A stretch of DNA of 64,000 bases from an uncultured bacterium (lineage in GTDB: Bacteria; Zixibacteria; MSB-5A5; UBA10806). The stretch lies in assembly GCA_965541585.1 (NCBI GenBank), contig CBEUCH010000016.1, positions 22,056 to 86,055 on the forward strand. The letters run 5' to 3'. Of the stretch, positions 18,122-44,010 are shown one piece after another (positions within the stretch are counted from its first letter, which is position 1; each line of letters opens with the position of its first letter). The notes below the pieces were generated by a model, which saw nothing but the letters and a program-made list of their open reading frames with translations, searched no databases and was not told the DNA's origin. Position numbers and translations under genes: made by a program.

Positions 18122-18150
18122 TTGACTATGTGGCGCGGGGTATCTATATT
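18122..18150 (+). promoter_or_regulatory. sigma70-type promoter for the LVIVD gene plus paralog array
   Basis: TTGACT-17 nt-TATATT, with an overlapping TATAAT at 18150. Confidence 0.7.
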
Positions 18151-20315: not shown

Positions 20316-20333
20316 AAGCTCAAGGGAGAAAAT

Positions 20334-21242
20334 ATGAAGAAGTTATCACTGGCAACATTAATCGTGATTTTCGTCGTAGCTATAGCCTCCGCCCAATCAA
20401 ACAAAATCGTCTTCGGGCCGCTGGTGGGGGATGATGCCGGAGTTCTAACCGTACACAAAAGCCAGGCCATCGGAGTTGAACTCTGGGTACGGACGAACCC
20501 GGATAATCCGGCTGACATTGTCGGAATGTCTCACGGCCTGATTTCCGAGGATTTTATCATTGCCGAGCGAAACGGCATGGATCCCGAGCCTGATTACGAT
20601 TCACCCCCCTGGGAAAATGTCTTTGTGGACGGGCCGTATGTATATGATCCGGAGGATAACTTTCCTATTCCGGTGGGTTGGACTTGCGAAATGCAGGGCG
20701 CTTTGTGTATTATTTTTAATCCGGTGCAGTGTGCTATTTTAGATACGCAAGGAGAGTGGGATCTCTACGGCACCTGGCTGATGACCACCAACACCGAAAT
20801 ACCGACAGAGCAAACTTATTTCCCATTCCAGGAGGGCTGGTACCCCCATACCCAGGGCCGGGAAAGCACCATTTGGGCATTCGACATTGGTGGTGGTGTC
20901 ACTCCGGAGCAGTCTTACTGCGGGTTGTATTTTGAATCTAACATCTGCTCCTATCTCTCAGGCGACTGCGACCATAACGGCTTTCCAATCGAACTCACTG
21001 ATGTTTTAGCCATGATCGGCTTTTACAGGGGAACGATGGAACCATATTTATGTGAATGCAGCGAAGATCCGACAGTCTACAACTTCGCCGCCACCGCCGA
21101 CCCCAACGGCAACTGCGCACCCAACGAACTCCTGGACGTGGTTACTGAGATAGCCGCCTACCGGGGAACCATGACAGCCTCCGGCTGCCCCGACTGCCCC
21201 GGCTCTGAGGGGCTGGTAACAGGCGAGAACGAAGGTCAATAA
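20334..21242 (+). CDS. Array gene 1: V domain + Cys-rich dockerin-like tail
   Basis: Signal peptide; tail GDCDHNGFPIELTDV...ADPNGNCAPNELLDV (two EF-hand-like loop-helix repeats). Confidence 0.85.
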   Translation: MKKLSLATLIVIFVVAIASAQSNKIVFGPLVGDDAGVLTVHKSQAIGVELWVRTNPDNPADIVGMSHGLISEDFIIAERNGMDPEPDYDSPPWENVFVDGPYVYDPEDNFPIPVGWTCEMQGALCIIFNPVQCAILDTQGEWDLYGTWLMTTNTEIPTEQTYFPFQEGWYPHTQGRESTIWAFDIGGGVTPEQSYCGLYFESNICSYLSGDCDHNGFPIELTDVLAMIGFYRGTMEPYLCECSEDPTVYNFAATADPNGNCAPNELLDVVTEIAAYRGTMTASGCPDCPGSEGLVTGENEGQ

Positions 21243-21252
21243 GGGAGAAAAT

Positions 21253-22173
21253 ATGAAAACGCTGCTCTCAATATTATTGGCGATAATGTTCATGCAATCA
21301 GCGGCTCTCTCGCAGGACCTGAACAAGATCGTCTTCGGCCCGCTGGAGGGAGATGATGCCGGAGTTCTGACCGTGCATAACGGCCAGGCCATCGGAGTTG
21401 AACTCTGGGTGCGGACAGATCCGGGCAATCCTGCTCCTGTTGTTGGTGTAGCTCACGGACTCATGTCTGAAGATGTCATCATAGCCGAGCGAAATGGCTT
21501 GGATCCTGAGCCCCTGTACGATTGGTGTATGTATTTTGTCGACGGCCCATACGCTTATGATGACCCGTATGAATATGAATTTCCCATCCCTCCGGGCTGG
21601 ACATGTGAAATGCAGTGGGCTGTCCCCTGCGATTGGCCGCCCTGTGGTGACGGCGAACCCGGCGGCGGTCCCATGGACACTCAGGGCGAATGGGACCTCT
21701 ACGGTAGCTGGCTGATGATCACTAACATCGAAATACCGGCAGAGCAAACTTATTTCCCATTCCAGGAGGGCTGGTACCCCCATAACGGCGAGGGAACAAA
21801 ATGGGAATTCGAGGGTGGTGGAGGCGTCGTGCCGGAGCAGTCCTACTGCGGCCTGTATTTTGAATCTAATATCTGCTCCTATCTCCTCGGCGATTGCGAC
21901 CATAACGGCTTTCCGATAGAACTCACCGATGTTTTAGCCATGATCGGCTTTTACAGGGGGGGAATAGAGCCAGATTATCTATGCGAATGCGGCGAAGATC
22001 CGACAGTTTACAGCTTCGCCGCCACAGCCGACCCCAACGGCAACTGCGCACCCAACGAGCTTAGCGACGTGGTTACCGAGATCGGCGCCTACCGGGGAAC
22101 CATGACGGCCTCCGGCTGCCCCGACTGCCCCGGTACGGAGGGGATAGTGATTCGAGAAAATGAAGGTCAATAA
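21253..22173 (+). CDS. Array gene 2: V domain + dockerin-like tail
   Basis: Same architecture as gene 1. Confidence 0.85.
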   Translation: MKTLLSILLAIMFMQSAALSQDLNKIVFGPLEGDDAGVLTVHNGQAIGVELWVRTDPGNPAPVVGVAHGLMSEDVIIAERNGLDPEPLYDWCMYFVDGPYAYDDPYEYEFPIPPGWTCEMQWAVPCDWPPCGDGEPGGGPMDTQGEWDLYGSWLMITNIEIPAEQTYFPFQEGWYPHNGEGTKWEFEGGGGVVPEQSYCGLYFESNICSYLLGDCDHNGFPIELTDVLAMIGFYRGGIEPDYLCECGEDPTVYSFAATADPNGNCAPNELSDVVTEIGAYRGTMTASGCPDCPGTEGIVIRENEGQ

Positions 22174-22183
22174 GGGCGGAAAT

Positions 22184-23068
22184 ATGAAAACGCTACTCTC
22201 AATAATATTGGCTATATTGTTCATGCAATCACCGGCCTCCGCCCAATCGAACAAGATCGTCATCGGCCCACTGGAGGGGGATGACGCCGGTGTTTTGACA
22301 GTGCACAATGGCGAAGCCATAGAGGTTGAGATATGGGTGCGAACCGATCCGGATAATCCGGCGGTGGTTATAGGCGTGAGCCACGGATTATTGTCAGAGG
22401 ATATCATCATAGCGGAGCGAAATGGCATGGATGTTGAGCCCCCGTACGACGAATGGCTTCAATATTTTGTAGATGGGCCCTTTACAGATGCCGACGGGGG
22501 TGCTTACCCTTATCCTGCCGGCTTTATCGGCGAGATGCAGGGTGCAATCTGGTGTGGCTTTTTGCCGCCTTGCCCCGACCAACCCATAGACACTCAGGGC
22601 GAATGGGACCTTTACGGCACATGGCTGATGGATGTTAATATCGGAATACCGACAGAGCAAACTTATTTCCCATTCCAGGAAGGATGGTACCCCCATAGCG
22701 GGTATGGCACCCTATGGGCATTCGACGGTGGTGGCATGGTCACTCCCGAGCAGTCTTACTGCGGCCTTTATTTTGAGCCATATCCTTGTTCATATATCCC
22801 CGGCGACTGCGACCATAACGGTTTTCCAATAGAACTCACCGATGTCCTGGCCATGATAGGTTTTTACAGGGGAACGATGAGACCAGATTTATGCGAATGC
22901 GGCGATGATCCCTTAATGCTCTATTTTGCTGCCACCGCCGACCCCAACGGCAACTGCGCGCCCAACGAGCTTCTGGACGTGGTTACCGAGATAGCCGCCT
23001 ACCGGGGAACCATGACAGCCTCCGGCTGCCCAGATTGCCCCGGTACGGAGGGTTTGTTGCGAAAATAA
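22184..23068 (+). CDS. Array gene 3: V domain + dockerin-like tail
   Basis: Start moved to ATG 22184 (MKTLLSI) by homology with paralogs. Confidence 0.85.
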   Translation: MKTLLSIILAILFMQSPASAQSNKIVIGPLEGDDAGVLTVHNGEAIEVEIWVRTDPDNPAVVIGVSHGLLSEDIIIAERNGMDVEPPYDEWLQYFVDGPFTDADGGAYPYPAGFIGEMQGAIWCGFLPPCPDQPIDTQGEWDLYGTWLMDVNIGIPTEQTYFPFQEGWYPHSGYGTLWAFDGGGMVTPEQSYCGLYFEPYPCSYIPGDCDHNGFPIELTDVLAMIGFYRGTMRPDLCECGDDPLMLYFAATADPNGNCAPNELLDVVTEIAAYRGTMTASGCPDCPGTEGLLRK

Positions 23069-23077
23069 GGCGGTAAT

Positions 23078-23983
23078 ATGAAGAATCTATTCAAAACATT
23101 ATTGGTAACCTCTTTAATAACAGCGTCAGCTTCCGCCCAATCCAATAAGATCGTCGTCGGCCCGCTGGTGGGGGATGATGCCGGAGTCCTGACCGTGCAC
23201 AATGCTGAGGCTATAGAAGTTGAACTCTGGGTGCGGACCGACCCGGCTAATCCAACTTCCATTATCGGCGTGGCGCATGGTTTATCCTCAGATAATGTTA
23301 TTATTGCTGAGCGAAATGGAGTTGTTATAGAACCTGAATACGACGAGCCCTATTGGTGCACAGTCTGGGTCGACGGGCCTTTTATCCATAATCCAGCTGA
23401 CGATTTCCCCATTCCGGAAGGTTTGACATGCGAGATCTCGGTCGGATTATATACATGGTGGCCCGACTGCATCGGCTGGCCGCTCAATACTCAGGGCGAA
23501 TGGGACCTCTACGGCACCTGGCTGATGGTTGTTAATACCGGAATACCAACAGAGCAAACTTATTTCCCATTGGAAGAGGGCTGGTATCCCCACAACGGAG
23601 AGGGCACAAACTGGGCATTCGACCGTGGTGGAGGCGTCACTCCGCAACAGTCTTACTGCGGCCTGTATTTTGAATCTAACATCTGCTCCTATATCCCCGG
23701 CGACTGCGACCATAACGGCTTTCCAATAGAACTCACCGATGTTCTGGCCATGATAGGCTTTTACAGAGGGGGAATAGAGCCAGATTATCTATGCGAATGC
23801 GGGGAAAACCCGACAGTATACAACTTCGCGGCCACAGCCGACCCCAACGGCAACTGCGCGCCCAACGAGCTTCTGGACGTGGTTACCGAGATAGCCGCCT
23901 ACCGGGGGACGATGACCGCCTCCGGCTGCCCCGACTGCCCCGGTACGGAGGGGATTGTGATTCGAGAAAATGAGGATCAATAA
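23078..23983 (+). CDS. Array gene 4: V domain + dockerin-like tail
   Basis: Same architecture. Confidence 0.85.
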   Translation: MKNLFKTLLVTSLITASASAQSNKIVVGPLVGDDAGVLTVHNAEAIEVELWVRTDPANPTSIIGVAHGLSSDNVIIAERNGVVIEPEYDEPYWCTVWVDGPFIHNPADDFPIPEGLTCEISVGLYTWWPDCIGWPLNTQGEWDLYGTWLMVVNTGIPTEQTYFPLEEGWYPHNGEGTNWAFDRGGGVTPQQSYCGLYFESNICSYIPGDCDHNGFPIELTDVLAMIGFYRGGIEPDYLCECGENPTVYNFAATADPNGNCAPNELLDVVTEIAAYRGTMTASGCPDCPGTEGIVIRENEDQ

Positions 23984-23992
23984 GGGGGAAAT

Positions 23993-25447
23993 ATGAAGAG
24001 GCTCTTCTGGCTATTACTGATTATATCTTTTATTTCATCATCAGCTTTCGGACAGGGCCTGAATAAGATCGTCTTCGGCCCGCTGGAGGGAGATGAAGCC
24101 GGGGTTCTAACCGTGCATAACGGTGAAGATATCGAGATCGAAATGTGGGTTCGAACAGACCCTAATAATCCAGGGCCTGTTGATAACATATTTCATGCTC
24201 TACTCTCTGAAGATATTATTATCGCCGAACGAAATGGTATTGTTATTGAACCTCCGTATGACAATGCCAACTGGGGGGGCTTTGTGGGTGTAGACGGTCC
24301 TTACGTTCATAATCCAAACGATAATTACCCTATTCCTGAGGGTTATACATGTGAAATCCAGTATGCTCTTCATTGCGACCCTTTTCCCTGCGATACCGAC
24401 GAAATGGACACACAGGGCGAGTGGGATCTTTACGGGACCTGGATGATGGTTGTCAATATGGACATCCCCGTGGATCAGACATATTTTCCTTTCATGGAAG
24501 GCTGGTACCCCGGTACGGGAAACGGTACTGAATGGTCGTTCGACGGTGGTGGCGGCGTCACTCCGGAGCAGTCTTACTGCGGTCTTTATTTCCCGATGCC
24601 CCAAACCAATAAGATCGTCTTCGGCCCGCTGGTGGGAGATGAGGCTGGAGTCTTGACGGTGCATAACAACCAGGCCATCGGAGTTGAACTCTGGGTTCGT
24701 ACCGATCCGGATAATCCGGCGGTGGTTACAGGCGTGCAACACGGGTTATTGTCAGAGGATATCATTATCTTAGAGCGAAACGGAATGGATATCGAGCCTC
24801 AATATGAATCTAATTACTGGCAAACATTTGTCGACGGCCCATACTCTTATGATGACCCGTATGAATATGAATTTCCCATCCCTCCGGGCTGGACCTGTGA
24901 AATGCAGTGGGCTCTCCGCTGCGATTTGCCGCCCTGCGACGGCGAACCCATGGACACTCAGGGCGAATGGGACCTCTACGGTACCTGGCTGATGATCACC
25001 AACATCGAAATACCGACAGAGGAAACTTATTTCCCATTCCAGGAGGGATGGTATCCACATAGCGGGGAAGGCACCCACTGGTCATTCGAAGGTGGTGGAG
25101 GCGTATACCCTGAGGAAGATTACTGCGGTTTGTATTTCGAACAGTATATCTGCGAATATATTCCCGGCGACTGCGACCATAACGGCTTTCCGATAGAACT
25201 CACCGATGTCCTGGCCATGATAGGTTTTTACAGGGGAACGATGAGACCAGATTTATGCGAATGCGGCGATGATCCCTTAATGCTCTATTTTGCTGCCACC
25301 GCCGACCCCAACGGCAACTGCGCGCCCAACGAGCTTCTGGACGTGGTTACCGAGATAGCCGCCTACCGGGGAACCATGACAGCCTCCGGCTGCCCAGACT
25401 GCCCCGGCTCGGAGGGGCTCGTAATTCGAGAAAATAAAGGGCATTAG
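23993..25447 (+). CDS. Array gene 5: two tandem V domains + dockerin-like tail
   Basis: The junction YCGLYF-PMPQT-NKIVFGPL joins two full V domains. Confidence 0.85.
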   Translation: MKRLFWLLLIISFISSSAFGQGLNKIVFGPLEGDEAGVLTVHNGEDIEIEMWVRTDPNNPGPVDNIFHALLSEDIIIAERNGIVIEPPYDNANWGGFVGVDGPYVHNPNDNYPIPEGYTCEIQYALHCDPFPCDTDEMDTQGEWDLYGTWMMVVNMDIPVDQTYFPFMEGWYPGTGNGTEWSFDGGGGVTPEQSYCGLYFPMPQTNKIVFGPLVGDEAGVLTVHNNQAIGVELWVRTDPDNPAVVTGVQHGLLSEDIIILERNGMDIEPQYESNYWQTFVDGPYSYDDPYEYEFPIPPGWTCEMQWALRCDLPPCDGEPMDTQGEWDLYGTWLMITNIEIPTEETYFPFQEGWYPHSGEGTHWSFEGGGGVYPEEDYCGLYFEQYICEYIPGDCDHNGFPIELTDVLAMIGFYRGTMRPDLCECGDDPLMLYFAATADPNGNCAPNELLDVVTEIAAYRGTMTASGCPDCPGSEGLVIRENKGH

Positions 25448-25456
25448 GGAGGATAT

Positions 25457-26413
25457 ATGAAAACGTTACTCTCAATAATATTGGCGATATCGATCATGCC
25501 GTCAGCGGCCCTTTCGCAGGACCTGAACAAAATCGTCTTCGGGCCTCTTGTGGGCGACAGTGCCGGAATACTGACTGTCCGCAACGGGGAGGAAATTGCC
25601 ATTGAAATGTGGATACACGCTGATCCCGAAAATCCATCATGTATTATAGGTCTATCTCATGGACTCATAACCGACGACGCTATCATTGCTGAAAGAAACG
25701 GCGTTGTCATCGATCCGTATTATGATGAACCCTACTGGGAGTCAGTCTGGGTTGATGGCCCATTTGACCACAACCCGGAAGATCCCTTTCCGATCCCGGA
25801 AGGACATACCGGTGAAAACCAGGTTGCCCTGGGATCCCTATTTGGTGGTTGTGATAGCATTCTTCATATACTCCCGGATACGGGATGGGTTTATTACGGG
25901 TCGTTTTTAATGGTATGTAACGATAACGTACCGCTGGGCGAAATATATTATCCATTTTCCATAGGCTGGTATCCGCATAGCGGTCAGGGAACCAGCTGGT
26001 CGTTTGATAACCCTCCGGGCGGCAGTGTTGAACCGGAGCAGGATTACTGCGGACTTTATTTCGTGCCGGAATGCGATTATGTTCCCGGCGATTGCGACCA
26101 CGACGGGACTCCGTGGAGGCTTACCGATGTAGTCTCCATGATCGCCTTCTACAGAGGCTTTGCGGAACCTCCCTATACGTGCTACTGCCCGCCTCATGAT
26201 GACGATTACCCTCCCGGCGCCGATCCCGACGGCAGTTGTGTTCCGTATGAGCTCTCCGACGTGGTCATCATGATCACCATGTTCCGGGGTCCTGGATGGC
26301 CGCCTTCCGGCTGCCTCGATTGCCGAACTTTCGGCAGGGTGGATTCGAGAAATGGCGATAATGAGAACCTCGTGCCAACCCTGAAATCAAAGGCTAAGAT
26401 CGAGAAAGAATGA
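25457..26413 (+). CDS. Array gene 6: V domain + divergent dockerin-like tail
   Basis: Tail PGDCDHDGTPWRLTDVVSMIAFY...GADPDGSCVPYELSDVVIMI. Confidence 0.85.
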   Translation: MKTLLSIILAISIMPSAALSQDLNKIVFGPLVGDSAGILTVRNGEEIAIEMWIHADPENPSCIIGLSHGLITDDAIIAERNGVVIDPYYDEPYWESVWVDGPFDHNPEDPFPIPEGHTGENQVALGSLFGGCDSILHILPDTGWVYYGSFLMVCNDNVPLGEIYYPFSIGWYPHSGQGTSWSFDNPPGGSVEPEQDYCGLYFVPECDYVPGDCDHDGTPWRLTDVVSMIAFYRGFAEPPYTCYCPPHDDDYPPGADPDGSCVPYELSDVVIMITMFRGPGWPPSGCLDCRTFGRVDSRNGDNENLVPTLKSKAKIEKE

Positions 26414-26423
26414 ATGGATTAAT

Positions 26424-28658
26424 ATGAAAAAGCTACCGCTTGCATTGTTGATTATTCTCTCAGGCACAGCTCTCGCTTCGGCGCAGGATTTAAACAAAAT
26501 CGTCTTCGGGCCGCTGGAGGGAGATGAGGCGGGAGTTTTGACCGTGCATAATGGCGAAGATATTGAGATTGAGATGTGGGTCCGGACCGATATCAATAAT
26601 CCTGAACCCGTTTTTGCCGTAAGCCACGCTTTAATGTCAGAAGATGAGATCATAGCTGAGCGTAACGGCGCCCAGCTTGATCCGGATTATGACATGCCGA
26701 ACTGGGAGCAAGTCTTCGTTGATGGGCCATTTAATCATAATCCCAATGATCCCTTCCCAATACTTGAAGGCCACACCTGCGAGATGCTGGGTGCTCTTTA
26801 TATTGTTTTCCAAGACCCCTACCCGGGTAGCCATCCCCTTGATACTCAGGGAGAATGGGATTATTATGGTGCTTTCCTGATGTCCTGTAATGCTGATATC
26901 CCGATCGATAATACTTATTATCCGTTTTCAGCGGGTTGGTATCCTCATAACGGATTAGGTTTCCGATGGACATTCGAGGTAGGCGAATACGTCATACCGG
27001 AGCAGGATTATTGCGGGCTTTACGTAACCACAAATGCAGACCCGGAGTTCACGATCTGTCCTCAAGATACGCAGCATGTTGCTCCCCGGCAGCCGATCTG
27101 CCTCGATGTCGCCGGCGTGGACGCAGATACGCTCGATGATCTACATATCTCCCTGATCTCCGGACCCGGTACATATTCCGAGGAAATTGGCGGGCCCGGA
27201 GGCTTTACCTCGGGTATCTGGTGCTGGGATAATCCTGCGCCAGGCGCCCACACCGTCCTGCTCGAGCTCAACGACAATGCCGGCGGAGTCGTCTATTGCG
27301 AATTTATCCTCGATGTTGAGGACATCGCCCTGGAGATCGAGTCTGTCGCGGGGTTCCCTGGTGCTACGGTCGTGGTTCCCATTCGCTTGCACACCTGGCT
27401 TTTGAGGACCGGCGGTGTGGAGCTCCTCATAACCTGGGATCCGGCGGATCTGAAACTTACGGAAGTCGTACCTAAGTCACGCATGGACTTCGGCAATGAA
27501 TACTTCAACCACGATGTAGACAATCCCTGTGATCCGCCCTGCGACCCGGGTGGCGCCGTCAGGATTTCCTGGATATCGGATATTGACGACGGCATTCCCC
27601 ATGCCCCGGCCGGCGCCGGCAGCGACCCGATCTTAGAGTTGATTTTCGATGTCTACCCCGGCCTGCCATGGGATATGAATATTCCCATCTCCTTCTTCAC
27701 CCAGCACGATACGGATAACATCGTTGCCGATTCATCCGGTAATGTCTGGTTCACTCCCGAATTAATCGACGGATGTATCGGAGTGCAGGATCCCTTTACA
27801 TTCAGGAAGGGCGACCCAAATATGAATGGCCATTTCTTTGAAATAGGCGATGTATTGCTGGTTATTCGTCGTTTGATTGAGGGCTATGTCGTCTGGTCTG
27901 AGAACGGCACTAATGACGACGACCTGCAAGAATACGCCGCTGACTTGAATAGAAACGGATTTGTGGATTTTTCAGATCTAATGACGTTCATCAACATTTT
28001 CAACGGTATTGTCGATCCCCCGTATAAGTTCCGGCCAGGCTCCGGGGTGGCACGTATCAGCATGACCGAAAATATCGGAGACAATGTGGTTGTATCTATC
28101 GATGCGGATGTTGATATTGGCGGGGTCCTTGTCAGAATCTCTCATCCGGGCATTGAGCTTGATGCTCCTTATGTCGAAAACAGCATGGAGATTCGCCACC
28201 ACGATTCCGATGGCCTCATGAGCGCTGTCGTATATTCGCTGGAGGCAAATACCATACCGGCCGGCAATTCGCATCTTTTCACCATACCTGTTCTCCCTAA
28301 CGAGGATGGTTGCCTGCGCTTCACCGAGGTTTCCTCCGCCGACTCTTATGGTCGTCTGATGGAGACTGTGGCTTCTCTGGAGACTCCTCTGCCAACTACC
28401 TTTGCCGTCGAGCAAAACTACCCCAACCCATTCAATGCCTCCACAACCATCCGATACAGCCTGCCGGAGGCCAGCGAGGTCACAATCGAAATCTTCAACA
28501 TCCTGGGGCGGAAGGTTGAGACGCTGGTTCAGGAAAAACAGGCTGCCGGCTATAATCAGGTGGTCTGGGATGCTGAGAATCAGCCGTCGGGAGTCTATTT
28601 CTATTGGATAAAAGCCGGAGAATATAAGGAATCGAGGAGCTGTTTGCTTCTGAAATAG
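26424..28658 (+). CDS. Array gene 7: scaffoldin-like protein (V + Ig-like + cohesin + dockerin + beta-sandwich + CTD)
   Basis: Cohesin signature LEIESVAGFPGATVVVPIRL...GGVELLITWDPADL; dockerin pair KGDPNMNG..FEIGDV / AADLNRNGFVDFSDL; QNYPNPFN CTD. Confidence 0.8.
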   Translation: MKKLPLALLIILSGTALASAQDLNKIVFGPLEGDEAGVLTVHNGEDIEIEMWVRTDINNPEPVFAVSHALMSEDEIIAERNGAQLDPDYDMPNWEQVFVDGPFNHNPNDPFPILEGHTCEMLGALYIVFQDPYPGSHPLDTQGEWDYYGAFLMSCNADIPIDNTYYPFSAGWYPHNGLGFRWTFEVGEYVIPEQDYCGLYVTTNADPEFTICPQDTQHVAPRQPICLDVAGVDADTLDDLHISLISGPGTYSEEIGGPGGFTSGIWCWDNPAPGAHTVLLELNDNAGGVVYCEFILDVEDIALEIESVAGFPGATVVVPIRLHTWLLRTGGVELLITWDPADLKLTEVVPKSRMDFGNEYFNHDVDNPCDPPCDPGGAVRISWISDIDDGIPHAPAGAGSDPILELIFDVYPGLPWDMNIPISFFTQHDTDNIVADSSGNVWFTPELIDGCIGVQDPFTFRKGDPNMNGHFFEIGDVLLVIRRLIEGYVVWSENGTNDDDLQEYAADLNRNGFVDFSDLMTFINIFNGIVDPPYKFRPGSGVARISMTENIGDNVVVSIDADVDIGGVLVRISHPGIELDAPYVENSMEIRHHDSDGLMSAVVYSLEANTIPAGNSHLFTIPVLPNEDGCLRFTEVSSADSYGRLMETVASLETPLPTTFAVEQNYPNPFNASTTIRYSLPEASEVTIEIFNILGRKVETLVQEKQAAGYNQVVWDAENQPSGVYFYWIKAGEYKESRSCLLLK

Positions 28659-28676
28659 AGGCTCAAGGGGGAAAAT

Positions 28677-29567: not shown

Positions 29568-29585
29568 AAGGTCAAGGGGGAAAAT

Positions 29586-30494
29586 ATGAAAAGATTACTG
29601 ATGCCATTATTAATCGTGATTTTCGGCTTAGCTACAGCCTCCGCCCAATCCAACAAGATCGTCTTCGGGCCGCTGGAGGGGGATGAAGCCGGGGTTCTAA
29701 CCGTTCACAATAGTGAGGCTATCGGAATTGAGATGTGGGTGCGAACAGACCCGGATAATCCTACGCCCATTATCGCCACAGCGCATGGTCTGATGTCTGA
29801 AAATGTGATCATAGTGGAACGAAATCGAATGGATCCTGAGCCGGAATATAACTCACTGCCTTGGGCACAGTTCTTTATAGACGGGCCTTATGTATATGAT
29901 CCCCAATATGACTTTCCTATACCTGAAGGCTGGACATGCGAAATGCAAGGTGCATTATGTTGTGACCTCCCAGGTGACCCTGGGCCGCGTCTTGACACCC
30001 AGGGCGAATGGGATCTTTACGGTACCTGGCTGATGGTCACTAATACCGAAATAGCGACAGAGCAAACTTACTTCCCATTCGTAGAAGGCTGGTATCCGCA
30101 TAGTGGCTTTGGTACTTCCTGGGTGTTCGAGTGGGGTGATGATTGGGTTGAACCTGACAAGTCTTACTGCGGGTTGTATTTCGAATCTAATATCTGCGTC
30201 TATCTCCCCGGCGACTGCGACCATAACGGCTTTCCGATAGAACTCACTGATGTCCTGGCCATGATCGGTTTTTATAGAGGGGGAATAGAGCCAGATTATC
30301 TATGCGAATGCAGCGAAGATCCGACAGTTTACAACTTCGCCGCCACAGCCGACCCCAACGGCAACTGCGCCCCCAACGAGCTTCTGGACGTGGTTACCGA
30401 GATAGCCGCTTACCGTGGAACCATGACAGCCTCCGGCTGCCCCGACTGCCCCGGCTCCGAAGGAATAGTGAATCGAGAAAATGAAGGGCGATAG
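29586..30494 (+). CDS. Array gene 9: V domain + dockerin-like tail
   Basis: Same tail as genes 1-5. Confidence 0.85.
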   Translation: MKRLLMPLLIVIFGLATASAQSNKIVFGPLEGDEAGVLTVHNSEAIGIEMWVRTDPDNPTPIIATAHGLMSENVIIVERNRMDPEPEYNSLPWAQFFIDGPYVYDPQYDFPIPEGWTCEMQGALCCDLPGDPGPRLDTQGEWDLYGTWLMVTNTEIATEQTYFPFVEGWYPHSGFGTSWVFEWGDDWVEPDKSYCGLYFESNICVYLPGDCDHNGFPIELTDVLAMIGFYRGGIEPDYLCECSEDPTVYNFAATADPNGNCAPNELLDVVTEIAAYRGTMTASGCPDCPGSEGIVNRENEGR

Positions 30495-30503
30495 GAGGCC
30501 ATT

Positions 30504-31397
30504 ATGAGGACCCTGGGATTTATATTGTTTGCATTCATATCTTTAGGGATGTCTGAGACCTCCGCGCAATCCAACAAAATCGTCTTCGGCCCGCTGGAGG
30601 GGGATGAGGCTGGAATCCTGACAGTGCATAACGGAGAGGCCATCGGAGTTGAACTCTGGGTACGGACAGATCCGGATAATCCCACCGGCATCTGTGGCAT
30701 GGCCCATGGCCTATCATCAGATGATCTTATAATAGGGAGTCGAAACGGAATCGATATTGAACCTGAGTATGACATGCCGAATTGGGAAGCCACCTGGGTT
30801 GATGGACCTTTTACGCATAATCCCGATGATCCTTTCCCAATTCCACAAGGATTTACGTGCGAAGTTCAAATTGGTTATAGTCTGTGGTGTTCACCGTTTA
30901 TGGATACGAACGGCGAGTGGGATCTCTATGGCACCTGGCTGATGGTTACCAATACTGGAGTACCGATAGAGCAGCTCTATTACCCATTTGCAATGGGCTG
31001 GTATCCTCATAGCGGACAGGGAACCAGTTGGTCTTTTGAAGCTCCGCCGGGCGGCTCGGTCGTTCCCGAGCAGGATTACTGCGGGCTCTATTTTGAAACC
31101 GAAACCCGTATAGACGAGAATAAAAGATTGCCCCAGGAGTTTTCATTGGCTCAAAACTATCCCAATCCCTTCAATGCCAAGACCACAATCCGATACAGCC
31201 TGCCGGAAAAGAGCGATGTCACCATAGAAATCTTCGATATCCTGGGGCGGAAGGTTGAGACGCTGGTTCAAGAAAGACTGGCTGCCGGCTATCATCAGGT
31301 GGTCTGGGACGCTGAGAATCAACCATCAGGAAATTATATGTACTGGATAAAAGCCGGAAAATATAAGGAATCGAGGAGCTGTTTGCTTCTGAAATAG
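30504..31397 (+). CDS. Array gene 10: V domain + CTD
   Basis: QNYPNPFN...SCLLLK. Confidence 0.85.
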   Translation: MRTLGFILFAFISLGMSETSAQSNKIVFGPLEGDEAGILTVHNGEAIGVELWVRTDPDNPTGICGMAHGLSSDDLIIGSRNGIDIEPEYDMPNWEATWVDGPFTHNPDDPFPIPQGFTCEVQIGYSLWCSPFMDTNGEWDLYGTWLMVTNTGVPIEQLYYPFAMGWYPHSGQGTSWSFEAPPGGSVVPEQDYCGLYFETETRIDENKRLPQEFSLAQNYPNPFNAKTTIRYSLPEKSDVTIEIFDILGRKVETLVQERLAAGYHQVVWDAENQPSGNYMYWIKAGKYKESRSCLLLK

Positions 31398-31415
31398 AAG
31401 CTCAAGGGGGAGAAT

Positions 31416-32309
31416 ATGAAGAAGCTATTACTGGCGACATTAATCGTGATTTTCAGCTTATCTATTGCCTCCGCCCAATCCAACAAGATCGTCTTCGGGC
31501 CGCTGGAGGGGGATGATGCCGGGGTTTTGACGGTGCACAATGCGGAGAGTATCGAAGTTGAACTCTGGGTGCGGACCGATCCGGATAATCCTGACTGGAT
31601 CATAGCTGTTTCCCACGGTTTGCTTTCTGAAGATGCCATTATCGCAGAGCGGAACGGCATGGATCCGGAGCCCGAATACAACATGCCTAACTGGGAAAGT
31701 TTCTTTGTCGACGGGCCTTTTGTACATGATCCAGACTATGCTTATCCCATTCCGATAGGGTGGACATGCGAGATGCAGGTCGCACTATGCGTCTGGAATC
31801 CGGGTTGTAGTTTGGATACCCAGGGCGAATGGGATCTTTATGGCACCTGGCTGATGGTTACGAATACCGAAATACCGGTTGAACAGACCTATTACCCTTT
31901 TGAAATGGGCTGGTACCCTCACAGTGGTCAGGGAACATCATGGGCTTTTGAAGTACCACCGGGCGGCATCATTGAGCCGGAGCAGTCTTACTGCGGGCTC
32001 TTTTTTGAACCCGAAACAAGTATCGACGAGAATGAAAGCCTGCCTGAAGAGTTTTTCCTTTTCCAAAACTACCCCAACCCGTTCAACACCAAGACCACAA
32101 TCCAATACAGCCTGCCGGAAGAGAGCAATGTCACAATCGAAATATACAATATCCTTGGCCGCAGGATCGAGACGCTAATATCCGGGATTCAGCCACCCGG
32201 TTCGCATTCGGTGGTATGGGATGCTGAAAATCAACCGTCAGGAGTCTATTTCTATTGGATAAAAGCCGGAAAATATAAGGAATCGAGGAGCTGTCTGCTT
32301 CTGAAATAG
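31416..32309 (+). CDS. Array gene 11: V domain + CTD
   Basis: QNYPNPFN...SCLLLK. Confidence 0.85.
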   Translation: MKKLLLATLIVIFSLSIASAQSNKIVFGPLEGDDAGVLTVHNAESIEVELWVRTDPDNPDWIIAVSHGLLSEDAIIAERNGMDPEPEYNMPNWESFFVDGPFVHDPDYAYPIPIGWTCEMQVALCVWNPGCSLDTQGEWDLYGTWLMVTNTEIPVEQTYYPFEMGWYPHSGQGTSWAFEVPPGGIIEPEQSYCGLFFEPETSIDENESLPEEFFLFQNYPNPFNTKTTIQYSLPEESNVTIEIYNILGRRIETLISGIQPPGSHSVVWDAENQPSGVYFYWIKAGKYKESRSCLLLK

Positions 32310-32327
32310 AAGGTCAATGGGGAAAAT

Positions 32328-33221
32328 ATGAAGAAGTTAGCAGCGGCGACATTAATCGTGATTTTCAGCTTATCTATAGCCTCCGCCCAATCCAACAAGA
32401 TCGTCTTCGGCCCGCTGGAGGGAGATGATGCCGGGGTTTTGACGGTGCATAATGGTGAGGCTATTGAGATTGAGATGTGGGTACGGACAGATCCGGATAA
32501 TCCTGCCCCTATTATTGGCATATCGCATTGTCTGATGTCTGCGGATACTATTATCGCCAGCCGTAACGGTGCCACATTTGATCCAGACTACAGCTATCCG
32601 TGTTGGAATACCTTCGTCAGCCCCCCATTCGGACACCCGGATTATCCGGACCTTCCCGAAGGACATACGATACAAGCTGCAGGCGCTATGCATACGGTAT
32701 TCGATCCTCCCTGCGATTCAATAGATACGAACGGCGAATGGGATTATTACGGGGCTTTTTTGATGACATGCAACACCGGCCTGCCAACAGATGAAACCTA
32801 TTATCCGTTTTCTATGGGTTGGTATCCTCACAGCGGCGAGGGAACAAAATGGGCATTCGCGGGAGGTGGCGGCATCGAGCCGGAACAGTCTTACTGTGGG
32901 CTGTATTTTGAGCCATATCCTTGTTTGTACATTCCCGGCGACTGCGACCATAACAGCTTTCCAATAGAACTCACTGACGTCCTGGCCATGATAGGCTTTT
33001 ACAGGGGGAATATAGAGCCAGATTATCTATGCGGCTGCGGAGAAGACCCCATAATACACGATTTCGCTGCCACCGCCGATCCCAACGGCAACTGCGCCCC
33101 CAACGAGCTTCTGGACGTGGTTACCGAGATAGCCGCCTACCGTGGAACCATGACAGCCTCCGGTTGCCCCGACTGCCCCGGCTCCGAGGGTCTGGTAAAG
33201 CGAGAAGATGAAGGTCAATAA
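32328..33221 (+). CDS. Array gene 12: V domain + dockerin-like tail
   Basis: V closely resembles genes 8 and 15 but carries the dockerin-like tail. Confidence 0.85.
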   Translation: MKKLAAATLIVIFSLSIASAQSNKIVFGPLEGDDAGVLTVHNGEAIEIEMWVRTDPDNPAPIIGISHCLMSADTIIASRNGATFDPDYSYPCWNTFVSPPFGHPDYPDLPEGHTIQAAGAMHTVFDPPCDSIDTNGEWDYYGAFLMTCNTGLPTDETYYPFSMGWYPHSGEGTKWAFAGGGGIEPEQSYCGLYFEPYPCLYIPGDCDHNSFPIELTDVLAMIGFYRGNIEPDYLCGCGEDPIIHDFAATADPNGNCAPNELLDVVTEIAAYRGTMTASGCPDCPGSEGLVKREDEGQ

Positions 33222-33230
33222 GGGGCGAAT

Positions 33231-34130
33231 ATGAAAACGCTGCTCTCAATATTCTTGGTGATATCGATCATGCCGTCAGCGGCCGTTTCGCAGGACCTGA
33301 ACAAGATCGTCATCGGCCCGCTGGTGGGAGATGATGCTGGCATTTTGACTGTGCATAACGGCGAAGATATTGAGATTGAGGTATGGGTGCGGACCGACCC
33401 GGGTAACCCGGTTTATATAGTCTTTGTTGCTCATGGTCTGTTGTCTGAAAACGCAATCATAGCGGAGCGAAATGGAATGGACCCTGAGCCTGTATATGAC
33501 ATGCCACCTTGGGAGTCATTCTGGGTCGATGGACCTTTTGTCCATAATCCGGAAGACAACTTTCCAATCCCCTCAGGGTGGACCTGCGAAATGCAGGCTG
33601 CATGGCTCGGCTGGACCGATCCACCACCACCTCTCGATACACAGGGAGAATGGGACCTCTACGGCACCTGGCTTATGGTTACGAATACCGAGATACCGAT
33701 AAACCAGACCTATTACCCACTTGCAATGGGCTGGTATCCGCACAGCGAGCAGGGGACCTTCTGGGGTTTTCCAGTGCCTCCCGGTGGCTCGGTGGAACCC
33801 GAGCAGTCTTACTGCGGGCTCTATTTTGAACCCGAAACAAATATCGACCAGAATGAAAGATTGCCGCAGGAGTTTTCTCTGGCTCAAAACTACCCCAATC
33901 CCTTCAATGCCAAGACCACAATCAAATATGGCCTGCCGGAAGCGAGGGAGGTTACAATCGAAATCTACAATACCCTGGGACGGAGGGTTGAGACGCTGGT
34001 TCAAGAAAAACAGGCTGCCGGCTATCATCAGGTGGTCTGGGATGCTGAGAATCAGCCGTCAGGAGTCTATTTCTATTGGATAAAAGCCGGAGAATATAAG
34101 GAATCGAGGAGCTGTTTGCTTCTGAAATAG
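33231..34130 (+). CDS. Array gene 13: V domain + CTD
   Basis: QNYPNPFN...SCLLLK. Confidence 0.85.
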   Translation: MKTLLSIFLVISIMPSAAVSQDLNKIVIGPLVGDDAGILTVHNGEDIEIEVWVRTDPGNPVYIVFVAHGLLSENAIIAERNGMDPEPVYDMPPWESFWVDGPFVHNPEDNFPIPSGWTCEMQAAWLGWTDPPPPLDTQGEWDLYGTWLMVTNTEIPINQTYYPLAMGWYPHSEQGTFWGFPVPPGGSVEPEQSYCGLYFEPETNIDQNERLPQEFSLAQNYPNPFNAKTTIKYGLPEAREVTIEIYNTLGRRVETLVQEKQAAGYHQVVWDAENQPSGVYFYWIKAGEYKESRSCLLLK

Positions 34131-34148
34131 AAGGTCAAGGGGGAAAAT

Positions 34149-35048
34149 ATGAAGAAGTTATCAGCGGCGACATTAATAGTGCTTTTCGGCTTAGCTATAG
34201 CCTCCGCCCAATCCAACAAAATCGTCTTCGGCCCGCTGGAGGGAGATGAGGCTGGGGTCTTGACGGTGCATAATGGTGAGGCTATTGAGATTGAGGTATG
34301 GGTCAGGACGGATCCATTGAATCCCGCTCCCGTCGTGGGATTTGCCACCGGATTATTGTCAAATGATAGCTTCATAGCCGAAAGAAACTGTGCCATTTTT
34401 AATCCCGAATACCATTGGGAAAGTATGGGCTGCGACGGCCCGTTTCGACACGATCCGGATGATCCTTTCCCTATCCCGGAAGGTCATACATCGGAATTCA
34501 TATGGGCCATCTGTCCGCTTTTTCCCCCTCCCTACTGTGATACTCTTGATACCGGTGGCGAATGGGATTATTTAGCCTCCTTCCTGATGGTCTGCAATAC
34601 CGGCGTGCCAACAGATGAAACCTATTATCCGTTTTCTATTGGCTGGTATCCTCACAGCGGCGAGGGAACAAAATGGGCATTCGCGGGTGGTGGTGGCATC
34701 ACCCCGGAGCAAGACTATTGCGGATTGTATTTTGATGAAATTATCGTTTGCGATTACATCCCCGGAGATTGCGATCATAACGGCTTTCCAATAGAACTCA
34801 CCGATGTTCTGGCCATGATAGGATTTTACAGGGGGAATATAGAGCCAGATTATCTATGCGAATGCGGCGAAGATCCTACAGTCTACAACTTCGCCGCCAC
34901 CGCCGACCCCAACGGGAACTGCGCCCCCAACGAGCTTCTGGACGTGGTTACGGAGATAGCCGCCTACCGGGGAACCATGACAGCCTCCGGTTGCCCCGAC
35001 TGTCCCGGCTCGGAGGGGCTGGTGATTCGAGAAAATGAAGATCAATAA
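34149..35048 (+). CDS. Array gene 14: V domain + dockerin-like tail
   Basis: Same tail as genes 1-5. Confidence 0.85.
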   Translation: MKKLSAATLIVLFGLAIASAQSNKIVFGPLEGDEAGVLTVHNGEAIEIEVWVRTDPLNPAPVVGFATGLLSNDSFIAERNCAIFNPEYHWESMGCDGPFRHDPDDPFPIPEGHTSEFIWAICPLFPPPYCDTLDTGGEWDYLASFLMVCNTGVPTDETYYPFSIGWYPHSGEGTKWAFAGGGGITPEQDYCGLYFDEIIVCDYIPGDCDHNGFPIELTDVLAMIGFYRGNIEPDYLCECGEDPTVYNFAATADPNGNCAPNELLDVVTEIAAYRGTMTASGCPDCPGSEGLVIRENEDQ

Positions 35049-35057
35049 GGGAGAAAT

Positions 35058-35951
35058 ATGAAAACGCTGCTATCAATATTATTGGCGATATCGATCATGC
35101 CGTCAGTGACAGTTTCGCAGAACCTGAATAAGATCGTTTTCGGGCCGCTGGAGGGGGATGATGCCGGGGTTTTGACCGTGCACAACGGCCAGGCTATTGA
35201 GATTGAGATGTGGATTAGAACGGATCCGAATAATCCTGCGCCTATTATCGGCGTATCGCATTGCCTGATGTCTGCGGATACCATTATCGCCAGCCGCAGT
35301 GGTGCCACATTTGATCCCGACTATAGCTATCCCTGTTGGGATACCTTCGTTAGCCCCCCATACGGACACCCGGATGATCCGAACATTCCCGAAGGATATA
35401 CGATACAAGCTGCAGGCGCTATCTATACGGTATTCGATCCTCCCTGCCACCCAATGGATACGAACGGCGAATGGGACTATTACGGGGCTTTTTTGACGAC
35501 ATGTAATACCGGCGTGCCAATAGATGAAACCTATTATCCATTTTCCAGTGGCTGGTATCCCCACAGCGGGCAGGGAACCAGTTGGTCTTTTGAAGCTCCT
35601 CCGGGCGGAAGCGTTGATCCAGAACAGGATTACTGCGGGCTCTATTTTGAGCCGGAGATCACTATCGATCCTATTCCTGAGATTCCCTCTGAGTTTTCAT
35701 TGGCTCAAAACTACCCCAATCCGTTCAACACCAGGACCACAATCCAATATAGCCTGCCGGAGGAGAGCGGGGTCACAATCGAAATCTACAATATCCTGGG
35801 GCGGAAGGTTGAGACGCTGATTCGAGAAAAACAGACAGCCGGCTATCATCAGGTGGTCTGGGATGCTGAAAATCAACCGTCAGGAAACTATTTGTACAGA
35901 ATTAAGGTTGCGGAGTATGTGGAAACGAGGAGTTGCCTGCTTTTGAAATAA
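35058..35951 (+). CDS. Array gene 15: V domain + CTD
   Basis: QNYPNPFN...SCLLLK. Confidence 0.85.
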   Translation: MKTLLSILLAISIMPSVTVSQNLNKIVFGPLEGDDAGVLTVHNGQAIEIEMWIRTDPNNPAPIIGVSHCLMSADTIIASRSGATFDPDYSYPCWDTFVSPPYGHPDDPNIPEGYTIQAAGAIYTVFDPPCHPMDTNGEWDYYGAFLTTCNTGVPIDETYYPFSSGWYPHSGQGTSWSFEAPPGGSVDPEQDYCGLYFEPEITIDPIPEIPSEFSLAQNYPNPFNTRTTIQYSLPEESGVTIEIYNILGRKVETLIREKQTAGYHQVVWDAENQPSGNYLYRIKVAEYVETRSCLLLK

Positions 35952-36175
35952 AGCCGGGACTATGCAAACGGCTTTCCAGAATATGCAGGCAAATCGCAAT
36001 GAACGGATTTTTCGAAAAGAGGACTTGTAAATCTGGTGTCTTAATCGGTGATTCTCAGGATCTGGCGTCAGCCTTTTCCTGGTATGTGAAAATCAACCGA
36101 TTAATGGATAAGGAGCCACCCATTTGCCTGCTCAAAAAAAAGGCAAATAAGCTCCACAATTTTTGCAAAAAAGTC

Positions 36176-36203
36176 TTGACATGGTTGGAAAATGCAATAT
36201 ATT
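36176..36203 (+). promoter_or_regulatory. Strong sigma70-type promoter for array gene 16
   Basis: TTGACA-16 nt-TATATT, with an A/T-rich upstream palindrome TTTTTGCAAAAA. Confidence 0.7.
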
Positions 36204-36340
36204 GTTGACATCAAGGATGAGTCGGTTTTGGCCTCTCTGTTATGGTCATTTGCTGTTGAGGTAAGATCGGGCGATTTAAGGGGTTGGCAAGCAAGAGTGT
36301 TAATAAATAAACAGTTTTACCTGATCAAAAGGAGTAAAAC

Positions 36341-37240
36341 ATGAGGAAATTGTTGTTGTTGGGTTTGGCCATTGTTTTCGCATTCAGCTTGGCATCGGCC
36401 GAATCAAACAGGCTGGTCTATGGACCATTGGTTGGCGACGACGCGGGTGATATCTTAGTCGAGTTTGCCGGCGATCCCGTTGAGGTCGAAATGTGGGTCC
36501 GCACCGATCCGGAAAATCCGGCCGCATTCGTGGGAGTGAACCATTCACTGATGACCGAGGATGCAGTTGTTGCCACGCGCAATGGCGTAACTATCGATCC
36601 CGCTTACGCGCCGCCGATGTGGGAGACAATCTGGCTCGACGGCCCATACATCCACGATGATGCTGATGATTTTCCTATACCGGTGGGCCACACCAGCGAG
36701 TCGGCGGTTGCCTTATACTTTGTATTCGGCGAACCTGAAGGTGATCCTCTGGATACGCAGGGAGATTGGGATTTATACGGATCCTATAGCGTGGTCACCA
36801 ATGAAGAGGCTCTTGAAGGCGAATACCATCCGTTCTCGACGGGCTGGTATCCCCACAGCGGGCAGGGCACCAGTTGGTCATATGAAACGCCTCCGGGCGG
36901 AAGCGCTGATCCCGAACAGGATTACGCTACATTGAATATCGGCCTGCTGGCCGCTGACGATGACGACATCCTGCCCATTGAATTCTCTCTGGCCCAGAAC
37001 TACCCCAATCCATTCAACGCCTCCACCACCATCGAATTCAGCCTGCCGCAGGCCAGCGAAGTTACGATCCATATTTATGATATCCTGGGTCGTAGCATCG
37101 AAACGCTGAATACAGGCACGCAGACTGCCGGTAATCATTCCGTTGTCTGGCATGCCGATAACCAGCCATCGGGCGTCTATTTCTACAGAATCCAGGCCGG
37201 GAATTTCAGCGATCAGAAGAGCTGCCTTCTTCTGAAATAA
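36341..37240 (+). CDS. Array gene 16: stand-alone divergent V domain + CTD
   Basis: NRLVYGPLVGDDAG...GWYPHSGQGTSW; has its own promoter, AGGAG RBS and terminator. Confidence 0.85.
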   Translation: MRKLLLLGLAIVFAFSLASAESNRLVYGPLVGDDAGDILVEFAGDPVEVEMWVRTDPENPAAFVGVNHSLMTEDAVVATRNGVTIDPAYAPPMWETIWLDGPYIHDDADDFPIPVGHTSESAVALYFVFGEPEGDPLDTQGDWDLYGSYSVVTNEEALEGEYHPFSTGWYPHSGQGTSWSYETPPGGSADPEQDYATLNIGLLAADDDDILPIEFSLAQNYPNPFNASTTIEFSLPQASEVTIHIYDILGRSIETLNTGTQTAGNHSVVWHADNQPSGVYFYRIQAGNFSDQKSCLLLK

Positions 37241-37265: not shown

Positions 37266-37295
37266 GGGCGGTCCTTTTGGGCCGCCTTTTTATTT
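37266..37295 (+). terminator. Rho-independent terminator
   Basis: GGGCGGTCC-TTTT-GGGCCGCCT followed by a T tract. Confidence 0.85.
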
Positions 37296-39396: not shown

Positions 39397-39539
39397 AGGA
39401 TAATCGAGGACAATTCTCTCCCCCGGGGCGAGGCAGACAGCTCGATTTTTAGCCTATCGCCTCGCCTCTCATATTACAGGTTTTCCATGCAGGAAATATT
39501 GGAGATTTGACCGGATTTTTATTATAATCGGAGAGACAT

Positions 39540-43999: not shown

Positions 44000-44010
44000 G
44001 AGATGAAATC

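Follow-up and report, generated by a model that had tools for sequence, protein, structure and literature searches.

The closest described relatives of the system considered here are cohesin-dockerin assemblies. In the clostridial type I pairs (Protein Data Bank (PDB) entries 4uyp, 5nrk, 1ohz and 2ccl), a nine-strand beta-sandwich, the cohesin, pairs with a dockerin of two helices and two loops, and clostridial cellulosomes use surface-layer homology (SLH) or sortase anchors. ScaC of Ruminococcus flavefaciens (5lxv), which has one cohesin and one dockerin, is a specificity converter. Here, we analyze a 16-gene array at positions 20334-37240 of a 64,000-nt stretch of DNA (“the window”; positions 22,056 to 86,055 of the forward strand of contig CBEUCH010000016.1, assembly GCA_965541585.1) from an uncultured bacterium of the Zixibacteria, whose products may form a surface scaffold of a related kind. 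A cellulosome-like complex anchored by a type IX secretion system (T9SS) C-terminal domain (CTD) has been predicted in silico for Candidatus Stygibacter, a member of the Cloacimonadota (Williams et al. 2021; PMC8542988). That report describes dockerin-tagged peptidases, including a C25 peptidase, together with other enzymes and a CTD-bearing cohesin scaffoldin for surface attachment, a single protein of 3,755 aa with Pfam-recognisable tandem cohesins and carbohydrate-binding modules (PMC8542988). Because that complex had already been predicted, the claim of a sequence-only reading of the present DNA, that no such system had been described, is too strong. A full-text literature search, with subscription journals largely outside its coverage, returned no relevant paper on Zixibacteria with a dockerin or a cohesin.

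We give a probability of about 0.5 to the reading that the array is the non-catalytic scaffold of a T9SS-anchored, non-cellulolytic, cellulosome-like surface assembly in a diderm bacterium. A domain shared by all 16 genes, here called V, would be a very diverged cohesin-fold socket, and a cysteine-rich C-terminal tail would be a diverged dockerin plug, homologous to dockerins that Pfam recognises. V is 172-180 aa long, runs from N-K-I-V to Y-C-G-L-Y-F, and is present in 17 copies, two of them in g5; mean column identity in the alignment of the 17 is 67%. All 16 genes lie on the plus strand and, in the open reading frame (ORF) listing and its translations, each has a signal-peptide-like start (M-K/R, a hydrophobic stretch, A-x-A-Q), judged by eye on the sequence rather than with a predictor. 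Nine genes (g1-g6, g9, g12 and g14) end in the Cys-rich tail; g8, g10, g11, g13, g15, g16 and the long g7 end in a type A T9SS CTD. The genes are as follows.

20334..21242, plus strand: g1; signal-peptide-like start; V 20400-20933; Cys-rich dockerin-like tail 20934-21239
21253..22173, plus strand: g2; signal-peptide-like start; V 21322-21861; Cys-rich dockerin-like tail 21862-22170
22181..23068, plus strand: g3; signal-peptide-like start; V 22250-22774; Cys-rich dockerin-like tail 22775-23065; ORF open from 22160
23078..23983, plus strand: g4 (the modelled protein); signal-peptide-like start; V 23144-23671; Cys-rich dockerin-like tail 23672-23980
23993..25447, plus strand: g5; signal-peptide-like start; V 24062-24592 and V 24608-25138; Cys-rich dockerin-like tail 25139-25444
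25457..26413, plus strand: g6; signal-peptide-like start; V 25526-26062; divergent Cys-rich dockerin-like tail 26063-26410
26424..28658, plus strand: g7, the long form, 744 aa; signal-peptide-like start; V 26493-27026; predicted inner domains Ig-like ~27033-27323, cohesin ~27315-27794, dockerin ~27801-28028 and beta-sandwich ~28047-28382; T9SS CTD 28419-28631
28677..29567, plus strand: g8; signal-peptide-like start; V 28743-29264; T9SS CTD tail 29265-29564
29586..30494, plus strand: g9; signal-peptide-like start; V 29652-30182; Cys-rich dockerin-like tail 30183-30491
30504..31397, plus strand: g10; signal-peptide-like start; V 30573-31094; T9SS CTD tail 31095-31394
31416..32309, plus strand: g11; signal-peptide-like start; V 31482-32006; T9SS CTD tail 32007-32306
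32328..33221, plus strand: g12, recombinant; signal-peptide-like start; V 32394-32909; Cys-rich dockerin-like tail 32910-33218
33231..34130, plus strand: g13; signal-peptide-like start; V 33300-33827; T9SS CTD tail 33828-34127
34149..35048, plus strand: g14; signal-peptide-like start; V 34215-34733; Cys-rich dockerin-like tail 34734-35045
35058..35951, plus strand: g15; signal-peptide-like start; V 35127-35648; T9SS CTD tail 35649-35948
36341..37240, plus strand: g16; signal-peptide-like start; most divergent V 36407-36940; T9SS CTD tail 36941-37237

For g3, the second ATG (22181, 7 bp past the g2 stop) is a likelier start than 22160. All seven CTDs of the array exceed the PF18962 cut-off in a genome search; hmmscan scored 42 bits for g7, 33.8 bits for g8 and 42.7 bits for g16 (Pfam cut-off 27), and TIGR04183 scored 38.9 and 34.2 bits on array CTDs (cut-off 23). 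No catalytic family was found by Pfam in g1, g5, g6, g7, g8 and g16 or by NCBIfam in g1, g6, g7 and g8; the remaining ten genes were judged by whole-length alignment to the scanned ones. The inventory made in the sequence-only reading (16 secreted paralogs with 17 V domains, nine Cys-rich tails, six CTDs, one central gene with cohesin, dockerin and CTD, and no recognisable catalytic domain) is thus borne out by the ORFs, alignments, Pfam searches and models.

The case for V as a socket comes from its predicted fold. The g4 protein, with one V and one tail, was modelled by AlphaFold from an alignment of 27 paralogs plus distant relatives, with a predicted local distance difference test score (pLDDT) of 82.8 overall and ~94 over V. 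In a Foldseek comparison of the V model with the PDB, cohesins made up 33 of the 34 rows shown at E ≤ 0.001, the exception being YcnI, and the top match was the R. flavefaciens ScaC cohesin (5lxv_A, E 1.6e-6). Comparison by VIA with 48,161 chains gave only cohesin-titled chains at ranks 1-19 (Z 14.4 to 10.3), the best being 4uyp_A (Z 14.4, root-mean-square deviation (rmsd) 2.4, 142/144 residues); the first non-cohesin titles were pilins, at Z ≤ 10.0. On the predicted model, V has the nine-strand jelly-roll fold of cohesins. At the level of sequence, identity to solved cohesins is ~6%-12%; V matches nothing in Pfam or NCBIfam, a PDB profile search gave 0 matches at E ≤ 10, and the Pfam Cohesin family PF00963 was not detected by hmmscan at E ≤ 0.1 in the six scanned array proteins. 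Genome-wide, PF00963 has five matches, none inside a V domain. Because no sequence-level link to cohesins was found, the cohesin label of V is a structural one, taken from the predicted model and the fold comparison. An ESM Atlas look-up of one V gave scores ≤ 0.85, which are leads only; the cluster at rank 11 has 13% Cohesin members.

The tail is ~100 aa long, rich in cysteine, and has two D-x-D/N-x-N-G loop-helix repeats. Eight of the nine window tails are near-identical (82%-92% identity to the tail of g1); that of g6 is 49% identical. None of the nine matches Dockerin_1 (PF00404) even at E ≤ 10, the tail has no match in Pfam or NCBIfam, and a PDB profile search returned only one chance-level match to a capsid (E 0.14). 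Hence, neither V nor the window tail passes the sequence test of its family. There is evidence of two kinds that the tail may nonetheless be a dockerin. On the g4 model, residues 183-261 align by VIA with the dockerins 2ccl_B (Z 8.0, rmsd 1.9 Å, 62/62 residues) and 4fl4_A (Z 7.9, rmsd 2.0, 65/68), and the tail has the duplicated loop-helix (F-hand) fold, with a pLDDT there of only 50-78. In addition, the tails of distant V proteins can be aligned column by column with the window tails and do pass Dockerin_1 (P0024, 26.0 bits; P0018, 27.5 bits; cut-off 22.9), and an hhalign comparison of a profile of 44 tails with the g7 dockerin gave a probability of 76.5% (E 2.2e-5). Acidic or amide residues are kept in the tail at places equivalent to EF-hand positions 1, 3, 5, 9 and 12 (D, D/N, N, E, D), and both repeats have a one-residue insertion after position 7 of the Ca loop. 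Six cysteine positions vary little or not at all among the 44 tails, and these residues probably form three disulfides. Two tail subtypes are visible. Subtype A, of G-D-C-D-H-N-G type, is found in all V proteins, in propeller cargo and in most beta-helix cargo. Subtype B (G-D-S-D-E-N-G with A-R-E-L-T-D) is found in 13 of 33 cargo proteins, including the C25 peptidase, both M28 peptidases, the InhA-like MAM protein and the plastocyanin-like protein. The two subtypes may correspond to two specificities.

Canonical forms of both modules appear to be present in g7. An AlphaFold model built with 38 homologs (pLDDT 87.8), examined with VIA, gives the order V, Ig-like domain, canonical type-I-like cohesin, canonical dockerin, beta-sandwich, CTD. 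The modelled cohesin aligns with 5nrk_A at Z 18.8 (rmsd 2.1, 142/143 residues aligned, 16% identity), the dockerin with 4fl4_A at Z 10.6 (rmsd 1.8, 68/68), and the Ig-like domain with Ig-like structures at Z ~10-11. Dockerin_1 scores 19.5 bits on g7 by hmmscan, under the cut-off, and 24 bits in the genome search. There is no PF00963 match in g7 itself at E ≤ 0.1, and precomputed PF00963 matches are present in 3 of 53 homologs. The beta-sandwich that follows the dockerin has no profile similarity to g7's cohesin or to V. The 53 long-form homologs, found in 5.8 billion clusters, are mostly 720-750 aa long with a CTD, and one comes from a metagenome-assembled genome named Candidatus Zixiibacteriota. 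On the predicted structures, these comparisons bear out what had been proposed from the sequence: a cohesin-like fold for V, whose strand assignment agrees with DSSP of the model; a type I-like dockerin in the tail; and cohesin, dockerin and CTD together in g7.

How does the locus compare with the described systems? In predicted fold, V and the middle domain of g7 share the nine-strand beta-sandwich of the clostridial cohesins (Z 14.4 and 18.8, respectively), and the tail and the dockerin of g7 share the dockerin structure of two helices and two loops (Z 8.0 and 10.6). Unlike the clostridial modules, V has no profile similarity to its family, and the tail has six cysteines and one-residue insertions in the Ca loops. 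The setting also differs from that of clostridial cellulosomes: the host is a diderm, the predicted anchors are of the T9SS rather than the SLH or sortase type, and the 18 cargo proteins assigned to a Pfam family include peptidases, propellers and beta-helices, with no recognisable glycoside hydrolase family among them. ScaC, the source of the top Foldseek match of V, has one cohesin and one dockerin, as the V-dockerin proteins would; unlike ScaC, they are encoded by nine genes of a single array, their dockerins are near-identical, and V paralogs close to them have a T9SS CTD instead. The resemblance to the Ca. Stygibacter system lies in a diderm host of the Fibrobacterota-Chlorobiota-Bacteroidota (FCB) group, a dockerin-tagged C25 peptidase, presumed CTD anchoring, and an in silico basis only (PMC8542988). 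In contrast to the large scaffoldin described there, the present system has many small proteins with one to three putative sockets, a cohesin family missed by domain models, Cys-rich dockerins and a recombining array. Finally, the seven CTD genes of the array resemble T9SS type A cargo in general (PF18962/TIGR04183), and SprA and PorU are encoded in the genome; unlike in usual T9SS cargo, the passenger would be a putative socket rather than an enzyme or adhesin, and surface anchoring outside the Bacteroidota is assumed.

The partners of such a scaffold were sought in the window's genome (G000, with contigs denoted C2, C6, C8, C13, C14 and so on). There are 26 V domains in 22 proteins, 17 of the domains being in the window. 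The scaffoldin-like architectures in the window have one or two V domains with a dockerin-like tail; elsewhere, V-CTD proteins are encoded on C8 and C6, a V-tail protein on C6, a 2V-tail protein on C29, a 3V-tail protein on C2, and a second long form on C13. At E < 1e-8, 45 of the 21,352 ORFs match a hidden Markov model of the tail, in each case at the C-terminus or no more than ~30 residues from it. V is absent from 33 of these 45 proteins, so that the genome-wide count of dockerin-tagged cargo suggested in the sequence-only reading comes to 33; 29 of the 33 have a signal-peptide-like start by a crude rule. Pfam families were found in 18 of the 33 (LVIVD and FG-GAP propellers, beta-helix/DUF1565, CarboxypepD_reg, Sortilin-Vps10 and DUF7948; Peptidase_C25, two Peptidase_M28, InhA-like MAM and a plastocyanin-like cupredoxin) and in none of the other 15. 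No glycoside hydrolase family is recognisable among the 18 family-assigned cargo proteins of the 33, so the system does not look like a cellulosome in that sense. Of the five V loci outside the window, four have a tail-bearing cargo gene no more than 3 kb away, and random placement gave at least four in 3 of 20,000 trials; this is modest support for a link between V and cargo because secretome genes cluster anyway.

The genome also encodes ~8-10 canonical cohesins and nine Pfam dockerin matches at E ≤ 0.01, seven of them above the cut-off; a profile of the g7-type dockerin has four matches. Two socket classes (canonical cohesins and the 26 V domains) and two plug classes (canonical dockerins and the 45 Cys tails) fit two orthogonal pairs, and so does a protein that bears both plug classes. 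That protein, L043 (G000:C14:50039-51172), is secreted and 378 aa long; Pfam recognises a dockerin at its N-terminus (24.4 bits), and a Cys tail lies at its C-terminus. It may represent a third socket class and a bridge between both plug classes. Its middle domain of ~150 aa looks cohesin-like by eye and recurs in one other ORF, L039, which is cut by a contig end. Three proteins of 116-120 aa have nothing besides a signal peptide and a Cys tail (L057, G000:C3:21135-21494; L058, C6:206744-207094; L059, C6:207926-208273), and these stand-alone plugs could cap or compete for sockets. A second cohesin-dockerin cluster lies at G000:C13:43711-82674. Besides the second long form, it encodes a divergent tail protein, three small proteins with a canonical cohesin, an ORF of 7588 aa in which Pfam recognises a dockerin, and a protein of 1412 aa that bears the tail.

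With these parts, the system could work as follows. The V-CTD proteins and g7 would be exported via SprA, fixed to the surface through their CTDs by the PorU sortase, and act as anchors. The V-dockerin proteins would plug into a V socket, either on an anchor or on a further V-dockerin protein, serving as monovalent or bivalent adaptors or extenders; the role of polyvalent scaffoldins would fall to the 2V and 3V proteins encoded elsewhere in the genome. The cargo would be the 33 tail proteins without V (peptidases, propellers and beta-helices). We infer V-to-tail binding, the matching of sockets and plugs, Ca dependence, the disulfides and surface anchoring. As regards secretion, an SprA gene lies in the window, in agreement with the proposed route as far as gene presence goes, and the genome has a PorU match of 687 bits and at least 150 CTD matches. 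It also has three secretin genes (G000:C20:42517-43011, C8:116627-117085 and C1:279447-279911), one of them near a weak T2SSL-like match; because of these, a type II secretion or type IV pilus route is possible for proteins that lack a CTD.

Relatives were surveyed in 41 related genomes, which are kin and so not independent, with a narrow V profile built from one genome. With the window's own genome left aside, the V profile is matched in 9/13 genomes of the same family, 3/10 of the sister family and 0/17 of other families, and the tail in 13/13, 10/10 and 1/17, respectively. The middle part of g7 is found in 36 of the 41 genomes, strongly so in all 23 of the order, and a tail occurs together with a strong long-form match in 23 of 23 searched genomes of the same order. 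In a wider search, a V profile had 34 matches among 1.84 billion representative proteins, and 68 clusters of close short forms came from a word-based search; no cluster has a functional name.

The history of the array is one of tandem duplication and cassette-swapping recombination, with a cassette that comprises the final two strands of V together with tail and spacer. The V tree does not separate the tail types: g8 (CTD), g12 (tail) and g15 (CTD) group together with support 100/99, as do two V proteins of contig C6, one with a CTD and one with a tail (100/97). The outermost branch among the window's V domains is g16. A mosaic is seen in g12, which is identical to g8 over nt 1-177 and 84%-93% identical over nt 178-465; from nt 466-525, it is 97% identical to g14, and most windows from 636-855 are 93%-97% identical to g14, with up to 98% identity to g9. 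The switch point is near a conserved G-W-Y-P-H-S-G motif. Since the first 177 nt of g12 and g8 (32328-32504 and 28677-28853) are 100% identical in genes with different tails, a very recent 5' gene conversion is indicated. The last two V strands track the tail type, with a P-P-G-G-S form in the six V-CTD genes and g6, and so do the spacers, which track the tail type of the upstream gene: they are 7-10 bp after all nine Cys-tail genes, and a conserved 18 bp after the CTD genes, including g7 and the LVIVD gene upstream of g1, with g15 (389 bp) as the exception (20316-36340). The 18-bp spacer starts with bases similar to the final codons of the tail genes, and this similarity suggests a common junction for cassette exchange. 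Hence, exchange of tails by recombination is supported, and the description of the tails as “swappable” holds. The description of the family as “diversified” needs qualification, because the diversity is that of old, diverged cores between homogenised ends. The median pS of tail and V is 0.39 and 0.66, respectively, in tail genes, and 0.48 and 0.72 in CTD genes; synonymous differences in the central V segments are saturated (pS ~0.8), with pN/pS ≤ 0.44. Median dN/dS is 0.15-0.21 for V and tails, and neither dN/dS nor pN/pS shows any sign of positive selection in V or tails. The syntenic locus of a same-genus genome (L014) has seven V genes, as against 16 here, and has neither the LVIVD gene nor a long form between the same flanks (a RecG-like helicase gene, three minus-strand genes, an M3 peptidase gene and a copper ATPase gene); from the sequences, the array has either roughly doubled here or shrunk in the relative.

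Several observations weigh against the scaffold reading. A common fold by itself demonstrates no function, and hhalign of V with g7's own cohesin gives a probability of only 0.2%-0.6%. The narrow V profile is matched in 13 of the 41 genomes, the tail in 25. The dockerin-binding face of cohesins, which we take to be strands 3, 5 and 6 and mapped onto V by topology, has an entropy of 1.25-1.49 in V, as against 0.67-0.85 in strands 1, 2 and 9; because variation peaks in these face strands, yet eight of the nine window tails hardly differ, the sockets are more diverse than the plugs. That near-identity of the tails also weakens the proposal, made from the sequence, of a “combinatorial” scaffold. 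A single complex prediction of V, tail and two Ca ions, run without controls, scored 0.20 and 0.16 against a mark of 0.32 and speaks neither way. The LVIVD, beta-helix, FG-GAP and C25 families of the genome also occur in CTD and Cys-tail versions, and V itself could be cargo that behaves like these families. Moreover, the canonical cohesins could serve all Cys tails, and the scaffold reading leaves the outer-membrane crossing of CTD-less tail proteins unexplained. Alternatively, V could be a displayed cohesin-fold binding head for external ligands such as polymers, particles or cells, and the V family one more cargo, shown on the surface either by a CTD or by a Cys-dockerin inserted into canonical cohesins that g7-type anchors provide. 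On this view, proteins with several V domains would be multivalent adhesins. V switches between CTD and Cys tail exactly as those cargo families do, its most variable strands are those of the presumed face while the window tails are nearly invariant, it lacks sequence homology to cohesins, and canonical cohesins sit on conserved CTD anchors in all 23 tail-bearing genomes of the order. However, the nearest solved folds to V are type I cohesins, at Z 13-14.4, clearly above pilin and adhesin domains (Z ≤ 10). The long form has V and a canonical cohesin in one protein, which is more simply understood as a pair of sockets, one for each plug class, and L043 bears both plug classes. The binding-head explanation is the main rival of the scaffold reading, and we consider it somewhat unlikely.

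The Cys-rich tail might serve chiefly for sorting or export, as a signal used in place of the CTD, with the V proteins as structural subunits of a surface coat. In favor of this, tail and CTD replace each other at the C-terminus in several families, the tail proteins have no other evident route across the outer membrane, and L057-L059 are a signal peptide and a tail only. We nevertheless hold it improbable: the full length of the tail is modelled as a dockerin, the tail is homologous to Pfam-positive dockerins, and the three secretin genes allow a type II-like route. We know of no dockerin-fold export signal, although no search aimed at one was made. The scaffold reading could instead be extended by piggyback export, in which pairs form in the periplasm and V-CTD or long-form carriers take CTD-less tail cargo through SprA and hold it on the surface; six-Cys tails can be oxidised in the periplasm, and the tail would be an indirect T9SS ticket. 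Piggyback export would explain the free swapping of CTD and tail across many families of the lineage, and we give it little credence at present. Least probable, and by our estimate very improbable, is that the array is a diversified surface-coat or decoy family under phage or predator pressure that has no cohesin-dockerin function and in which the likeness of fold is convergent or a relic. A large tandem array with a diverged central region between homogenised ends, and a fast change in copy number (16 genes, and seven at the syntenic same-genus locus), would be expected of such a family, but no positive selection is seen (median dN/dS 0.15-0.21, central raw pN/pS ≤ 0.44), and the 33 cargo proteins that share the tail would be left unexplained.

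The array is preceded by an LVIVD gene that is probably the first gene of its operon. Intergenic spacers are 7-18 bp, each with a G-rich ribosome-binding-like stretch, except for the 389-bp gap before g16. The signals and genes around the array are as follows.

1968..7868, minus strand: SprA-like T9SS translocon gene, 1966 aa (Pfam SprA_N PF14349, E 4.1e-27, 95.7 bits against a cut-off of 27)
18071-18093: terminator-like hairpin before the promoter-like site at 18122
18122..18150, plus strand: promoter-like site 5' of the LVIVD gene, 10/12 consensus matches; candidate start of the transcription unit
18210..20315, plus strand: LVIVD beta-propeller with T9SS CTD (Pfam LVIVD E 1.4e-104; Por_Secre_tail 41.7 bits), 18 bp 5' of g1
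36176-36203: promoter-like site in the 389-bp gap before g16
37266-37287: terminator-like hairpin 3' of g16

A promoter and terminator scan of the region gave site numbers that are not above those of shuffled sequences, so the proposed operon boundaries are only consistent with the scan. Directly 3' of the array, 37504-42179 encodes an M3 oligopeptidase and a copper-translocating P-type ATPase (YHS and two HMA domains), neither with an evident link to the array. More CTD proteins are encoded at 42305-52776 and 63008-63949 of the window (a beta-helix protein, an LVIVD protein, a 263-aa protein without another family, a C25 peptidase, a DUF1565 beta-helix protein and an FG-GAP protein), and most of their families recur elsewhere in the genome with a Cys tail instead.

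What would a scaffold function mean? Such a function is plausible on the predicted models, and it raises the question of how partners without a CTD get out of a cell dependent on type IX secretion. If the two modules pair as proposed, they would offer new orthogonal plug-and-socket pairs for protein engineering, possibly stabilised by disulfides. They would also be module families missed by current domain libraries, and secretomes could be re-read with them in mind; in this genome alone, 45 proteins would carry an unannotated tag and 26 domains would be an unannotated socket. Should V function as a socket, assembly by cohesins and dockerins would extend beyond Gram-positive degraders of cellulose and the few cases annotated so far. 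An uncultured diderm phylum would then have in it a general means of arranging proteases, propellers and adhesin-like proteins on the cell surface.

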